IMG/VR virus record: IMGVR_UViG_2681813233_000003
Source of the DNA: a virus
Taxonomy: Duplodnaviria; Heunggongvirae; Uroviricota; Caudoviricetes
Strand: one strand, 5' to 3'
Length of the DNA stretch: 24,003 bases
Shown here piece after piece: positions 9,371 to 14,212 of the stretch. A model generated the notes under the pieces. It did no database searches. It saw only the letters and a program-made list of their open reading frames with translations, and was not told where the DNA came from. The first letter of the stretch is position 1. Every line of letters starts with the position of its first letter. The position numbers were made by a program, and so were the translations under genes.

Positions 9371-9479
9371 ATGCCCTCCATAGTAAACACGAATAAAAAT
9401 ACAATATGTACTTTACGAATACAAGTAAAAATACACATTGTGCATGGATGGTTCCAGTACAAAGCGTAATAATAAGGAC
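9371..9479. promoter_or_regulatory. Divergent pR/pRM promoter-operator region (OR) between cro and cI
   Basis: AT-rich 109-bp gap with repeated partially palindromic motifs (tacaatatgta, cacattgtg, ttacaagtaa). Confidence 0.45.
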
Positions 9480-10139
9480 ATGAAAATGAAATGGTATGAA
9501 CTGGCTAGATCCAGAATGAAAGAGCTCGGCATAACTCAAGAGAAGTTAGCCGAAGAGCTAGGTATGACGCAGGGTGGGATTGGACACTGGTTGCGCGGAT
9601 CTCGTCATCCATCTCTTAGTGATATTGGTGTGGTGTTTAAATACCTTGGTATTGATAACATATCATTCAACCACGACGGGACATTTTCACCTGTTGGCGA
9701 ATACTCATCGGCCCCAGTTAAAAAACAATATGAGTACCCTGTTTTTTCTCATGTTCAGGCTGGGATGTTCTCTCCAGAACTCAGAACCTTTACCAAAGGC
9801 GATGCGGAGAGATTGGTAAGCACAACCAAAAAAGCCAGTGACTCTGCATTCTGGCTTGAGGTTGAAGGTAACTCAATGACCGCACCAACAGGTTCCAAAC
9901 CCAGCTTTCCTGACGGGATGTTAATTCTGGTTGACCCTGAGCAAGCTGTTGAGCCCGGCGATTTCTGCATAGCCAGACTTGGTGGTGATGAATTTACCTT
10001 CAAGAAACTGATCAGGGATAGCGGTCAGGTGTTTCTACAGCCACTAAACCCACAATACCCAATGATCCCATGCAATGAGAGTTGTTCCGTTGTGGGGAAA
10101 GTTATCGCCAGCCAATGGCCTGAAGAGACGTTTGGGTGA
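9480..10139 (+). CDS. cI: CI repressor, chimeric: heterologous N-terminal DNA-binding domain fused to lambda-identical C-terminal LexA-like autocleavage/dimerisation domain
   Basis: From ~[14 protein letters not shown] to ...SQWPEETFG matches lambda CI; N-terminal ~95 aa differ; start at MKMKWYE preceded by aagga. Confidence 0.85.
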
Positions 10140-10178: not shown

Positions 10179-10736
10179 TTGGCAAAAATAGATGATTATC
10201 AGCCAAGCCAAGTAGAAGTTGATAAAGTACTTTATTGTAAAAAAATAGTTAACTTTTCTGGCGTTAAATGGAAACAGAAACCAAGTCGCTCTGATATGTG
10301 GCTACAAGCTCATATCATCCCCTTGGATGAGGATTGTATACCTATACAAGGGCTAAAGTTTGAACTGAAATGGAAACCAGATCAGGATTCAGAACCTGAT
10401 GACCCGATTTCTTACCCTAAAATAAATATTATTGCTTTCTATCATAACAAGAGGGTTTTCGCGGTAGATACCTATCACTTTGACAAACACACGAATAGTT
10501 ACAAGGTCGATCATCCGAAGTACCAAGATATCATTTACGGTGCTCACTACCATGTATACTATGAAGAAGCTGGATACTATAGTGATAGAATAGCGTTTCC
10601 AATCGAAGATGACATAAACCCAGATGACCTGGTAGGGTATTGGAATTACTTCTGTAAACATCTGAACATAACTTACTCTGGGAGAATACCTTTACCGCTT
10701 GAAGATGAGTCGGGGCAAATGGGGTTTGGAATATGA
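10179..10736 (+). CDS. Unknown protein A (185 aa, aromatic/acidic-rich, no TM) at the rexA position; candidate exclusion/defence component
   Basis: ORF 40 bp downstream of cI stop; probable TTG start (first in-frame ATG only at codon 40); many rare codons (ATA/AGA/AGG/CTA); stop overlaps gene B start. Confidence 0.6.
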   Translation: MAKIDDYQPSQVEVDKVLYCKKIVNFSGVKWKQKPSRSDMWLQAHIIPLDEDCIPIQGLKFELKWKPDQDSEPDDPISYPKINIIAFYHNKRVFAVDTYHFDKHTNSYKVDHPKYQDIIYGAHYHVYYEEAGYYSDRIAFPIEDDINPDDLVGYWNYFCKHLNITYSGRIPLPLEDESGQMGFGI

Positions 10737-11485
10737 TGTGCTCAACAGTGATCTCACAACTAGGTTTCGAATGCCATCCAATAGGCAAGACCTTGAGAAT
10801 TATCAGTCCATTCACTTACTGTGATGATGGAGAGCATGTCGGTGCCTTTATCCGTGAAGTCAATGGTAGGTATTTAGTTAGTGACAGATGCGATGCCTTA
10901 ATGAATATGGAGGCAAGAGGGATCTCGCTTACCAAAAAACGACTTGATGAGATACGACAATTACTGCTTAAAGAAGGCGCAGAACTCAATGCTCGAGGAG
11001 AAATCATTGCTTGGGCAACAGAAAAGGATGTCGGTGCGATTACATCGAACATAATTAGAGCTGGTATACTCGCATCAACTTTGTCGTTAGACTGGTATCA
11101 GCCAGTTCAAGCTGAAAAGTTTGAAAGTATGGTTATTGATTATCTATATCACACAGAGCTTAGAGACGCACTTTCTCTTCGTGAAAACGTATATGGCTTG
11201 AGTGGACATCAAATTACCGTCCCTGTAACAATAAAAACCGACATACCTAAATACGTTTTTACATCAAGCGTGAAACACGGAGGAAGCTGGAATAGTGCTT
11301 ACTCATTGCTTGGGAAACTAATTGATCTTAAAGCTTCAAGTGAGGAGTATAACAACAGATTTGTTGTTATAGACAGCGAAGCAATTGGTGATCAAATGCA
11401 ACAACTCTCCTTACTCTTCCATGAATCAAGCCAAGTTCTACCATTCTCCAAAAGAGAGACTTGGATTAAGAGACTTGCAGCATAA
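10733..11485 (+). CDS. Unknown protein B (250 aa, soluble) at the rexB position; candidate exclusion/defence component
   Basis: ATGATG start overlapping gene A stop (translational coupling); AT-rich with rare codons; followed directly by an intrinsic terminator. Confidence 0.65.
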   Translation: MMCSTVISQLGFECHPIGKTLRIISPFTYCDDGEHVGAFIREVNGRYLVSDRCDALMNMEARGISLTKKRLDEIRQLLLKEGAELNARGEIIAWATEKDVGAITSNIIRAGILASTLSLDWYQPVQAEKFESMVIDYLYHTELRDALSLRENVYGLSGHQITVPVTIKTDIPKYVFTSSVKHGGSWNSAYSLLGKLIDLKASSEEYNNRFVVIDSEAIGDQMQQLSLLFHESSQVLPFSKRETWIKRLAA

Positions 11486-11684: not shown

Positions 11685-11760
11685 CAACTTACAACAAATT
11701 GTATTGATCTTGTAAAGTACATATCGTACTATTTAACCGTCAGCAGGACGCTGGAAGCCA
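11685..11760 (+). promoter_or_regulatory. Putative pL/OL promoter-operator region
   Basis: AT-rich; palindromic motifs acaaattgt and gtacatatcgtac resembling the OR motifs; directly upstream of nutL and N. Confidence 0.35.
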
Positions 11761-11777
11761 AATGGAACAGACTGGCA

Positions 11778-11823
11778 GGCTCTTTAAACAACGTCGACTC
11801 TCGACTACGTGGCTGAAAAGCCA
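11778..11823 (+). promoter_or_regulatory. nutL-like site (boxA gctctttaaacaa, boxB tggc-tgaaaa-gcca)
   Basis: boxA consensus-like element followed by a GAAAA-loop hairpin, ~100 nt upstream of N start. Confidence 0.5.
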
Positions 11824-11921
11824 GATCACCCAACCACATAAGCTGTGGGATGCAATGCCGAAGCAACCGTCTCAGGAGGAGCTTCGAGATTGCATCGCCA
11901 AAGTTTATTCGGGAGGAATCC

Positions 11922-12194
11922 ATGTCCAGAAAAACAGAATTTAAAGGCACCGCAGCTTCTCGCCGTAGAGCTCGTCGCGCAAATCTGCAAAGTCAGGAGG
12001 CGATCAGCTCCGACAAGCTACACAGGCCAACCCCTTCACGAGTGGTCTTGCAATGCAAGCGCAAACCAGCAATGAGAGCAGAAGTAATAACACTGACAAC
12101 GTTGACCAGAAAATATGAAGGTTCAACTTGTCTTCCGAACGTAGCTCTTTACGCGGCAGGCTACCGGAAATCCAAACAACTGACAGCAAGATGA
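11922..12194 (+). CDS. N: N-type transcription antiterminator, P22 gp24-like (Arg-rich motif near N-terminus)
   Basis: 90 aa from MSRKTEFKGTAASRRRARRANL with gggagg RBS; C-terminus ...VALYAAGYRKSKQLTAR recalled as P22 gene 24-like; not lambda N. Confidence 0.7.
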   Translation: MSRKTEFKGTAASRRRARRANLQSQEAISSDKLHRPTPSRVVLQCKRKPAMRAEVITLTTLTRKYEGSTCLPNVALYAAGYRKSKQLTAR

Positions 12195-12252
12195 CTTGTG
12201 TTGGTCGCCAGAAAATGAAATTAGGCAGCAAACCACTTATTTGAGGTGAGAT

Positions 12253-12339
12253 ATGGAAGAAGAATTTGAAGAGTTCGAAGAGCATCCTCAGGATGTGATG
12301 GAACAATACCAGGACTATCCGTATGACTACGACTATTGA
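12253..12339 (+). CDS. orf28-like acidic micro-protein (28 aa), overlaps ral start by 17 nt
   Basis: Manual translation MEEEFEEFEEHPQDVMEQYQDYPYDYDY; gaggtg RBS; size and 17-nt overlap match the recalled lambda orf28/ral arrangement. Confidence 0.45.
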   Translation: MEEEFEEFEEHPQDVMEQYQDYPYDYDY

Positions 12340-12420
12340 TAAGAATCAATGGTGTGGACAATACGAACGACGACAATGATTGCCAGAGAACTTGGTAAAC
12401 AGAACTACAAGGCTGCCTGA
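12323..12420 (+). pseudogene. ral: ral (restriction alleviation) pseudogene: ~103-bp internal deletion with frameshift
   Basis: N-terminal MTTTIDKNQWCGQ then premature stop after 18 codons; C-terminal IRTTTMIARELGKQNYKAA lies in a different frame; lambda Ral recalled as 66 aa. Confidence 0.5.
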
Positions 12421-12438
12421 TGGTGGCCTTTATTTTTG
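12408..12438 (+). terminator. Intrinsic terminator after ral (G·U-containing stem aaggctgcc/ggtggcctt then TATTTTTG)
   Basis: Hairpin plus T tract; T-tract segment ggcctttatttttg is repeated at 12946. Confidence 0.45.
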
Positions 12439-12478
12439 TCCGTAAATAATTTCATGCTTATTACAATCAAGGTGATAT

Positions 12479-12928
12479 ATGGAAGAACAAGCAAACAAGA
12501 TTCTCGTAGAACTACTGCAAAAAGCCAGTAATGGAATAGACGCGGCTGTTTCATTTAGCCAGGCACAGATTCCTGATGTTGTTCATCAGTTGCTGCTATG
12601 GAATATGGTTGACAGTCTGATTAAAACATTAATGGCCATTCTAACAATCCCACTGGTTTTCTGGTTTATGAAGAAGCAGTGCCAAAGAGTTGAGACAGGT
12701 AAAATCGGTGATGAAGGATATTCATGGGAGAAAGGAAATCCCAAATACAGGCCGACAATGGTTTGGGATAGCAAAGGTGATATTAATCTTCTTATCATGC
12801 CATTGGTTGGAGTTTTGACTCTGTGGGGGATTTTTATTATTGGTGTAGTAACCAATATGACTTGGTTAAAAATTTGGCTGGCCCCAAAGCTTTACCTTAT
12901 CGAATATGCAGCATCATTGGTTAAGTAA
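12479..12928 (+). CDS. Small membrane protein (149 aa, two predicted TM helices); moron between ral and ea10, possible superinfection-exclusion function
   Basis: Hydrophobic stretches LIKTLMAILTIPLVFWFM and INLLIMPLVGVLTLWGIFIIGVV; aaggtg RBS; own terminator; AT-rich; flanked by 14-bp direct repeat. Confidence 0.6.
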   Translation: MEEQANKILVELLQKASNGIDAAVSFSQAQIPDVVHQLLLWNMVDSLIKTLMAILTIPLVFWFMKKQCQRVETGKIGDEGYSWEKGNPKYRPTMVWDSKGDINLLIMPLVGVLTLWGIFIIGVVTNMTWLKIWLAPKLYLIEYAASLVK

Positions 12929-12932
12929 TTTC

Positions 12933-12958
12933 AGGCCGCATAGTCGGCCTTTATTTTT
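12933..12958 (+). terminator. Intrinsic terminator of the 149-aa moron
   Basis: aggccg-catagt-cggcct hairpin followed by TTTATTTTTGG. Confidence 0.55.
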
Positions 12959-13077
12959 GGCATAAACAACAGAATAAACACTGCACTGTGTATTCATTCC
13001 AACGAGTGAATACACGGAGCAATGTCGCTCGTAACTAAACAGGAGCCGACTTGTTCTGATTATTGGAAATCTTCTTT

Positions 13078-13104
13078 GCCCTCCGATGTGAGGGCGATTT
13101 TTTA
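13078..13104 (+). terminator. Intrinsic terminator-like hairpin upstream of ea10
   Basis: gccctc-cgatgt-gagggc followed by GATTTTTTAT; preceded by 9-bp-stem hairpin gtgtattca...tgaatacac at 12989-13016. Confidence 0.4.
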
Positions 13105-13123
13105 TCTATGAGGATATGAATAG

Positions 13124-13492
13124 ATGTCAAACATCAAAAAATACATCATTGATTACGACTGGAAAGCATCAATAGAAATTGAAATCGACCATGACGTAAT
13201 GACAGAGGAAAAACTTCACCAGATTAATAATTTCTGGTCAGACTCTGAATACCGACTCAATAAACACGGCTCTGTATTAAATGCTGTATTAATCATGCTG
13301 GCGCAACATGTTCTGCTTATAGCAATTTCAAGCGACTTAAATGCATATGGTGTTGTGTGTGAGTTCGACTGGAATGATGGAAATGGTCAGGAAGGATGGC
13401 CTCCAATGGATGGTAGCGAAGGAATAAGAATTACCGATATCGATACATCAGGAATATTTGATTCAGATGATATGACTATCAAAGCCGCCTGA
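13124..13492 (+). CDS. ea10: Ea10 (lambda early protein, Ssb-associated)
   Basis: 122 aa; position between ral and cIII; recalled lambda Ea10. Confidence 0.8.
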   Translation: MSNIKKYIIDYDWKASIEIEIDHDVMTEEKLHQINNFWSDSEYRLNKHGSVLNAVLIMLAQHVLLIAISSDLNAYGVVCEFDWNDGNGQEGWPPMDGSEGIRITDIDTSGIFDSDDMTIKAA

Positions 13493-13564
13493 GCGCTGCG
13501 TTACCGCATACCAATAACGCTTCACTCGAGGCGTTTTTCGTTATGTATAAATAAGGAGCACACC

Positions 13565-13729
13565 ATGCAATATGCCATTGCAGGGTGGCCTGTTGCTGGC
13601 TGCCCTTCCGAATCTTTACTTGAACGAATCACCCGTAAATTACGTGACGGATGGAAACGCCTTATCGACATACTTAATCAGCCAGGAGTCCCAAAAAATG
13701 GATCAAACACTTATGGCTATCCAGACTAA
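13565..13729 (+). CDS. cIII: CIII (FtsH inhibitor, stabilises CII)
   Basis: Manual translation [54 protein letters not shown] (54 aa) equals recalled lambda CIII. Confidence 0.9.
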   Translation: MQYAIAGWPVAGCPSESLLERITRKLRDGWKRLIDILNQPGVPKNGSNTYGYPD

Positions 13730-13841
13730 ATTCACTATCGCCACTTTTATTGGCGATGAAAAGATGTTTCGTGAGGCCGTCGACGCTTATAAAAAATGGA
13801 TATTAATACTGAAACTGAGATCAAGCAAAAGCATTCACTAA
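13698..13841 (+). CDS. kil: Kil (host-killing / FtsZ inhibitor), overlaps cIII 3' end
   Basis: 47 aa from [12 protein letters not shown]...; internal start within longer ORF 13572..13841. Confidence 0.8.
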
Positions 13842-14212
13842 CCCCCTTTCCTGTTTTCCTAATCAGCCCGGCATTTCGCGGGCGATATTTTCACAGCTAT
13901 TTCAGGAGTTCAGCCATGAACGCTTATTACATTCAGGATCGTCTTGAGGCTCAGAGCTGGGCGCGTCACTACCAGCAGCTCGCCCGTGAAGAGAAAGAGG
14001 CAGAACTGGCAGACGACATGGAAAAAGGCCTGCCCCAGCATTTGTTTGAATCGCTCTGCATCGATCATTTACAACGCTGCGGGGCCAGCAAAAAAGCCAT
14101 TACCCGTGCATTTGATGACGATGTTGAGTTTCAGGAGCGCATGGCAGAACACATCCGGTTCATGGTTGAAACCATTGCTCACCATCAGGTTGATATTGAT
14201 TCAGAGGTATAA
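13796..14212 (+). CDS. gam: Gam (RecBCD inhibitor)
   Basis: 138 aa; recalled identity to lambda Gam ([18 protein letters not shown]...). Confidence 0.95.

Follow-up and report, generated by a model that had tools for sequence, protein, structure and literature searches.

The window that we analysed (the whole stretch of DNA, 24,003 nt) is lambdoid prophage DNA whose + strand has the orientation of the early-left (pL) operon, and all of the features described here lie on that strand. The cI gene (9438-10139) is followed by two genes at the position of rexAB, and an N gene of the H-19B/933W type occupies 11922-12194. Downstream of this N, at 12191-12253, the last part of an N gene of the CUS-3/HK633 type survives as a relic, together with the post-N Shine-Dalgarno sequence (TGAGGTGAGAT); it is near-identical to the N ends of CUS-3 and HK633 and forms the left boundary of a cassette containing orf28 and ral (cassette A). 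The first gene of this cassette, orf28 (12254-12340, 28 aa), corresponds to lambda orf28 in sequence and in position. The next gene had been named ral in a preliminary description of this DNA; it does consist of ral sequence (12323-12420, aligned with lambda and Sf6 ral), but it is a pseudogene that has undergone a 103-bp out-of-frame internal deletion between the imperfect 8-bp repeats TGGACAAT and TGGGCAAT. In an E. coli CEA106S prophage that is 100% identical over a 951-bp stretch of the window, PGAP labels ral as 'frameshifted'.

The ral remnant ends in a hairpin and T-tract (12409-12438), the 5' arm of which lies inside the end of ral. The hairpin proper (12409-12430; z -3.9) has nine pairs, AAGGCTGCC-TGAT-GGTGGCCTT, and a folding energy of -13.9 kcal/mol alone and -15.8 kcal/mol in a 41-nt stretch. 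A 40-nt leader (12439-12478) then precedes the ATG of a gene for a 149-aa protein with two transmembrane (TM) segments (12479-12928; cassette B), which, as the preliminary description had it, possesses both its own Shine-Dalgarno sequence (AAGGTGAT at 12469-12476, with GGTGAT at 12471-12476) and its own predicted terminator. The latter is a hairpin with T-tract at 12933-12959, of which 12933-12950 forms six pairs (AGGCCG-CATAGT-CGGCCT, -9.7 kcal/mol, z -1.7). Both hairpins are followed by TTATTTTTG and are predicted intrinsic (rho-independent) terminators. The spacer that follows (12960-13123) is conserved and common to lambda, Sf6, HF4s, HK633 and SPN9CC; it contains the stretch annotated as 'bsq4 boundary sequence' in the Sf6 record, and its hairpin at 13076-13097, with a T run behind it, matches tL2A of the same record. 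Beyond it lie ea10 (13124-13492) and then cIII, kil, gam and bet. 

Two direct repeats mark the region. The 14-mer GGCCTTTATTTTTG occurs in exact copies at 12425-12438 and 12946-12959, 521 bp apart, each copy comprising the 3' arm and the T-tract of one of the hairpins; no third copy was found in the window, even at one mismatch, and the chance expectation is 0.01 copies, with two copies in none of 100 shuffles. The second, a 21-nt repeat made of the Shine-Dalgarno sequence and ATGGAAGAA, is found at the start of orf28 (12244-12264) and at the start of the membrane-protein gene (12470-12490), with 19 of the 21 positions identical. A 15-nt repeat, TAAATAATTTCATGC / TAAGTAATTTCAGGC, was discarded as chance-level (an estimated ~0.5 expected in 1 kb), and no Rfam RNA was found in the 521-bp segment between the 14-mers.

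The segment had been described as an insertion, and it is absent from lambda itself: in the alignment, lambda has a single GGCCTTTATTTTTG and lacks exactly the intervening 521 bp, as had been predicted, so that ral and ea10 are 182 bp apart there and 703 bp apart in the window. Sf6 has both junctions as in the window, around its gene 34. More generally, some lambdoid phages have the segment and others that are otherwise collinear with them do not, the empty sites having one 14-mer. Among the IMG/VR matches listed, with the lambda, Sf6 and Stx2_EH2086 records included in the count, at least 104 ral-end junctions are empty (running into lambda-type spacer) and at least 19 are occupied. All 19 occupied junctions listed have the identical joint, (T/G)CCGTAAATAAT, and no cargo other than the membrane-protein family was found at such junctions among these matches, the gene being present as 149-aa or 140-aa alleles. 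The post-ral hairpin is intact at every occupied site and at about half of the empty sites, and degenerate in lambda. Elsewhere the two 14-mers are not always identical, with GTCC variants of the right copy in Stx2 phage EH2086, HF4s and others, and the gene's own hairpin has decayed in HF4s and at 6 of 19 related loci.

Origin of the tandem arrangement

Comparison across lambdoid phages separates three forms of the locus: lambda carries cassette A only, SPN9CC, Oslo and HF4s carry cassette B only, and the window, Sf6 and CUS-3 carry A followed by B. HK633 retains only the last ~12 nt of ral, the hairpin and the joint before B. In SPN9CC, the sequence upstream of orf28 in lambda (...CACTATTTAAGGTGATATATGGAAGAA) leads into the membrane-protein gene, which replaces orf28-ral and is followed by GGCCTTTATTTTTGG, the spacer and tL2a, and Oslo switches from orf28 to the membrane-protein gene at ATGGAAGA. 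These boundaries imply that orf28-ral and the membrane-protein gene are alternative cassettes, which by all appearances occupy one and the same slot. Its left edge would be the post-N Shine-Dalgarno sequence with the ATGGAAGAA start, and its right edge would be GGCCTTTATTTTTG followed by the conserved spacer ending in tL2a. The 21-nt repeat is then evidently the left boundary present twice. For the 14-mer, we infer that it is the left edge of the right boundary, common to both parents; since it follows cassette A in lambda and cassette B in SPN9CC and HF4s, this is a better reading of the repeat than the insertion of a gene into a pre-existing terminator, as had been proposed.

The leader of the membrane-protein gene carries the trace of how the two cassettes came together. 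Positions 12439-12478 are a decayed 3' end (~40 nt) of an N gene of the Sf6/HF4s type with the Shine-Dalgarno sequence overlapping it (GCTTATTACGATTGAGGTGAGATATG in HF4s compared with GCTTATTACAATCAAGGTGATATATG in the window). The ungapped comparison with the HF4s N end gives 29 of 43 matches, and 19 of 29 outside the Shine-Dalgarno region, a score that was reached by none of 200,000 shuffles and by one other position among 47,948 in the window. Directly to the left of the leader the identity drops to 3 of 17, and the homology ends at the T-tract. The relic implies that a functional N once stood immediately in front of the membrane-protein gene, the arrangement seen in HF4s, and its presence in the joint implies that the tandem A+B form is derived. 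Even where the lambda spacer is absent, the gene is accompanied by its hairpin and T-tract, as in Oslo (AGGTCGCAATGCGGCCTTTTTTATTG), in a different context.

Taken together, we consider it probable, from these sequence comparisons, that the 521 bp constitute an optional cassette in the pL operon of lambdoid phages, joined in tandem by unequal crossover. A single illegitimate event would have joined an A-only genome, broken just after the T-tract, to an HF4s-like B-only genome, broken ~43 nt upstream of the membrane-protein gene; the joint would then have spread by homologous recombination, and the centre of the gene would later have been swapped among alleles. What stands of the preliminary interpretation is the addition relative to lambda; its mechanism does not, as neither insertion into a terminator nor duplication of a target is called for.

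The tandem could instead be ancestral at this locus, with lambda-type empty sites arising by RecA-independent deletion between the 14-bp repeats. The single 14-mer at the empty sites is exactly the product expected of such a deletion, and comparable events are at hand: the ral deletion, 100 bp away, lies between imperfect 8-bp repeats, the right T-tract has been lost by another small deletion in one related locus, and deletions flanked by direct repeats readily arise in evolving Sf6 (PMC5630979). However, the N relic places the gene once directly after a functional N, so that the tandem itself is derived, and the B-only and A-only forms have both outer boundaries in common. As a general account we therefore consider this unlikely, although it may hold for some individual empty sites: the direction of change is not provable from extant sequences, and some of the lambda-like sites could be secondary deletions between 14-mers.

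The preliminary description had favoured a moron, that is, a promoter-gene-terminator unit inserted into the post-ral terminator with duplication of the T-tract, which would supply the prophage with an exclusion factor like SieB or Imm. Several features fit: lambda lacks the segment and has one 14-mer, the post-ral hairpin and T-tract are intact at about half of the empty sites, the product is a small two-TM protein, and the gene comes with its own hairpin and T-tract. It is also found at unrelated genome positions: the PhiR46_1 copy occupies a classical late moron site, between Rz and Nu1. No promoter, however, is detectable. A consensus scan, which can miss weak or activator-dependent promoters, gave no sigma-70 promoter-like site in 11700-13700 of the + strand, and none upstream of the PhiR46_1 copy; TTGTCC-17-TATTAC, at 12436-12464, matches at 4+4 positions but does not satisfy the rule that the scan applies to the last -10 base, and the Tyr-Tyr codons of the N relic are the source of its -10-like TATTAC. 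The leader is the decayed end of an N coding sequence. Nor is the composition atypical (GC 39.0%, versus 38.2% in ea10 and 40.9% in the spacer), there are no terminal inverted repeats and no transposase, and B-only phages have the 14-mer after the gene before any joining to ral. The protein shows no similarity to SieB and matches no exclusion or defence family in Pfam, PHROGs or PADLOC, and it has homologues in virulent phages. An insertion of this kind is, in our judgement, quite improbable.

Two further candidates were rejected. A transposon with target-site duplication is contradicted by the lack of terminal inverted repeats and by element ends that differ between contexts (HF4s, Oslo, HK639 and PhiR46_1 have only the ORF in common, with or without the hairpin), and an integron-like or site-specific cassette by the same variable ends and by the presence of only one gene family at the site. 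The arrangement is ordinary lambdoid mosaicism with an unusually legible scar. It offers a worked example of gene gain and loss in a lambdoid early operon, in which alternative cassettes have a ribosome-binding-site start and a terminator or boundary in common and the tandem form retains an N-gene relic as the scar of joining, and it cautions against reading short direct repeats around phage genes as scars of insertion.

The membrane-protein gene and its family

The two hydrophobic helices noticed earlier in the 149-aa ORF were recovered as two Kyte-Doolittle peaks (19-residue windows above 1.6), at residues ~43-65 (peak 1.87) and ~100-130 (peak 2.45), which place the hydrophobic segments themselves at about 46-64 and 102-126. 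The protein is identical to WP_000392425.1, which PGAP lists as a hypothetical protein. It belongs to PHROG 3054, matching the profile over its full length (residues 1-149 against positions 1-137 of 137, E 4.2e-64) and having the architecture common to the family, exactly two TM segments being predicted in 238 of 268 retrieved members of 110-190 aa. PHROG 3054 was the only significant PHROGs match (one further match was non-significant). Pfam gave no family at E<=1, NCBIfam nothing and PADLOC no model at E<=10, and Pfam scans of ten distant homologues yielded sub-threshold noise only. A profile search of PDB sequences found nothing; the AlphaFold2 model, built from 53 sequences, is poor (pLDDT 63), and its Foldseek comparison with BFVD gave no match at E<=0.001.

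Selection acts unevenly along the protein. For five lambdoid copies (Nei-Gojobori; the segments are short and the values rough), the overall dN/dS is 0.09-0.34, with 0.06-0.13 for residues 1-45 and 0.02-0.17 for residues 127-149 in most pairs, and 0.6-1.1 in TM2 and 0.2-0.5 in the loop in most comparisons. The conserved parts are the acidic N-terminal ~45 residues and a C-terminal helix of ~23 residues, WLKIWLAPKLYLIEYA (family pattern WLKIW.APKLYL.EYA), and the TM1-loop-TM2 centre is fast-evolving. Alleles of 149, 140 and 121 aa (the last in HK633, N7 and SPN9CC) have near-identical DNA at both ends of the gene and unalignable centres, which suggests that recombination within the conserved ends has replaced the centre. 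The topology is less clear: in 173 of 238 family proteins the loop has more K+R than both terminal segments combined, and the N segment is net acidic, so that a cytoplasmic loop with N-out/C-out is slightly favoured, but the lysines flanking the C-terminal end of TM2 point the other way.

This pattern indicates that the ORF is a real gene under purifying selection. The contrary view, that it is not a functional gene, could appeal to the lack of any function, name or domain on record, but it is effectively refuted by the 149-aa length kept across Escherichia, Salmonella, Citrobacter, Cronobacter, Kluyvera and Pantoea (516 matching clusters at 90% identity, nearly all of 149 aa), by N- and C-terminal dN/dS values of <=0.13 against HK639, the most divergent homologue, with synonymous sites saturated, and by thousands of homologues.

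The family is indeed very large. A profile search of 1.84 billion representatives returned 2,490 clusters (50% identity) at E<=1e-3 and 1,178 at E<=1e-10; in no source does a cluster member carry a functional name, all being 'hypothetical', and we found no functional data on PHROG 3054 or Sf6 gp34 proteins in the literature. By tblastn, the gene is present in 178 phage records, and it is found in 245 of 5,426 complete E. coli genomes. Its usual place in lambdoid and P22-like phages is the early-left operon, where it follows ral in Sf6 and CUS-3, a 3' remnant of ral in HK633, N directly in HF4s, the sieB region in Oslo and SPN9CC, and a putL-type antiterminator in HK639. In virulent phages, homologues lie in early or DNA-metabolism regions: in the N4-like Schitoviridae the gene adjoins RNA polymerase II, dUTPase or thymidylate synthase genes, and it occurs in the phi92-like 146-kb myoviruses (Justusliebigvirus) and Vibrio siphoviruses. 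A Pseudomonas phage also has it, and a Ralstonia jumbo phage has three matching places. No conserved partner gene was found in the virulent phages; among the neighbours there are a collagen/YadA-anchor protein, an AAA ATPase, DUF2800 and a pentapeptide-repeat protein.

Expression, possible roles and comparison with known systems

Given the strong hairpin upstream and the N-antiterminated operon, we infer delayed-early, N-dependent expression: the gene would be transcribed from pL, and only when a polymerase modified by N passes the strong post-ral terminator, its product would be a delayed-early lytic protein, and it would be silent in the lysogen. Because no promoter is detectable and the gene sits in an N-antiterminated operon, expression from the prophage is unlikely.

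The label SieB/Imm-like, which the preliminary description had attached to the product, finds no sequence support. An hhalign comparison of the family profile with lambda SieB gave a probability of 0.3%, there is no SieB match in Pfam or PHROGs, and no model of Imm, SieA, holins or defence systems matched, in so far as these are represented in Pfam, PHROGs and PADLOC. The presence of the family in early regions of virulent phages also argues against an exclusion role specific to the lysogen, and early-region homologues in temperate and virulent phages alike make any service specific to lysogeny unlikely. Exclusion during lytic growth would be a guess. Somewhat more broadly, a lytic role at the envelope, for example in shutting out or outcompeting other phages or in counteracting a host response linked to the membrane, is a possibility that we put forward tentatively, on the grounds of early expression, membrane location and conserved ends around a fast-changing, allele-swapping centre. 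The conserved N- and C-terminal segments would then work at a single face of the inner membrane, to which the TM hairpin would anchor them. Extending this to the whole family is a little more speculative still: PHROG 3054 might be a widespread, unrecognised class of early phage inner-membrane effectors, common to temperate lambdoid phages and virulent N4-like, phi92-like and Vibrio phages, whose conserved ends, at one membrane face, exclude competitors or disarm membrane-linked host defence and whose swappable TM-loop-TM centre sets the specificity.

The main alternative to a part in such envelope conflict is a role in lysis timing or host takeover, the protein being a holin- or antiholin-like factor of lysis or envelope timing, or a Kil-like takeover protein acting on division or transport, and not directed at other phages. 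In its favour, the protein is small and has two TM segments, the expression context beside kil and cIII is early, and the family is also present in virulent phages, which as a rule take over the host. However, there is no holin or other Pfam match at E<=1, and the gene lies between ral and ea10 and, in virulent phages, among early genes, with no endolysin or spanin neighbours except, loosely, in PhiR46_1. Lambdoid phages of the type in the window have late lysis genes of their own, and the fast-evolving, allele-swapping centre fits the target of an arms race better than a housekeeping function. We thus regard this alternative as improbable.

Whatever its role, the gene in the window is an accessory early-operon gene of a large uncharacterised family, and it is of more interest than the manner of its arrival: a very large family of phage membrane proteins stands without a Pfam model, and a function for this one gene could extend to thousands of 'hypothetical' phage genes.

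Among known systems, SieB, SieA and T4 Imm resemble the product in being small inner-membrane phage proteins, and SieB is encoded in the matching region of the operon. The window protein nevertheless has no sequence relationship to lambda/P22 SieB, P22 SieA or T4 Imm. SieA and SieB are expressed in the prophage from their own promoters, unlike the expression proposed for the window gene; T4 Imm is also made early in lytic infection. 

The lambdoid morons (lambda bor and lom, HK97 gp15) are similar in being extra genes with their own hairpin and T-tract at several genome positions, but the window gene has no detectable promoter, is not of atypical composition and lies inside an N-antiterminated early operon. 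By the moron criteria of Juhala and Hendrix, a place between genes that adjoin each other in related phages and a predicted terminator are found here, and a promoter (by the consensus scan) and atypical composition are not. 

The closest counterpart is Sf6 gene 34 (protein AAQ12224.1), which is likewise a member of PHROG 3054, has the post-ral position, the joint and the downstream boundary in common with the window gene, and is near-identical in DNA over the 5' ~125 nt and the 3' ~70 nt of the gene. It differs in length (140 versus 149 aa), and the two proteins are 50% identical overall, with TM1-loop-TM2 unalignable. The borders themselves resemble the boundary sequences of Sf6 and CUS-3 (bsq4, bsq5), which are short conserved stretches marking the borders at which alternative genes are exchanged. 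The 14-mer of the window lies ~24 nt upstream of the annotated bsq4, and the window differs from these boundary sequences in having the boundary twice, as would follow from the joining of two alternative cassettes in tandem.

Alleles of the membrane-protein gene

Set against its counterparts in three other sequences (L001:1858-2280, L131:1575-1940 and L137:901-1266), the membrane-protein gene at window positions 12479-12928 (+ strand) proves to have three alleles, encoding 149 aa in the window, 140 aa in Sf6 and 121 aa in HK633, N7 and SPN9CC. The DNA ends of the three alleles are near-identical, the centres, which encode TM1, the loop and TM2, are unalignable, and the loop of the 121-aa allele is short, at only ~8 residues. 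In the HK633 record, the gene is wrongly split into two ORFs. We also observed that in Shigella phage B2, an N4-like phage, the homologue is followed by gp84 (L004:4473-5462), whose product has both collagen triple-helix repeats and a membrane-anchor domain like that of YadA, a type of gene that is atypical of phage early regions.

Elements around cIII and gam

The start of cIII (window 13552-13600) matches the Rfam family Lambda_thermo, the cIII thermoregulator, with 66 bits, the match being clipped where the searched stretch ends; this is an already known element. Farther along, gam is intact in the window (13796-14212). In the otherwise identical E. coli CEA106S prophage, an IS3-family element is inserted in gam (L133:4717-6327).

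Genes between cI and ral

Two overlapping genes lie directly 3' of cI (window 10179-10736 and 10733-11485), at the position of rexAB in lambda. The pair matches the PADLOC candidate defence system PDC-M24, with E-values of 5e-4 for subunit A and 6e-10 for subunit B, and the second gene is named a DUF1828 protein by PGAP. The N gene that follows is mosaic (window 11922-12253): an H-19B/933W-type ORF ends at 12194, and the ~55 nt after it match, almost base for base, the 3' end of a CUS-3/HK633-type N gene (...GRQKMKLGSKPLI*). These nucleotides are a second N-gene relic and mark an earlier joint.

The ral remnant and the hairpin after it

The ral gene of the window is a pseudogene (12323-12420) with a 103-bp out-of-frame deletion relative to the ral genes of lambda and Sf6, flanked by two imperfect copies of a direct repeat, TGGACAAT and TGGGCAAT. 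Among complete E. coli genomes, 53 carry this deleted form together with the membrane-protein gene. The lambda counterpart of the post-ral hairpin (12409-12438 in the window; L002:1774-1814 in lambda) folds poorly because of two substitutions, reaching -5.8 kcal/mol (z 0.1), no better than shuffled sequences, and roughly half of the empty sites in the sample, where ral ends with no membrane-protein gene after it, carry the same degenerate hairpin form as lambda.
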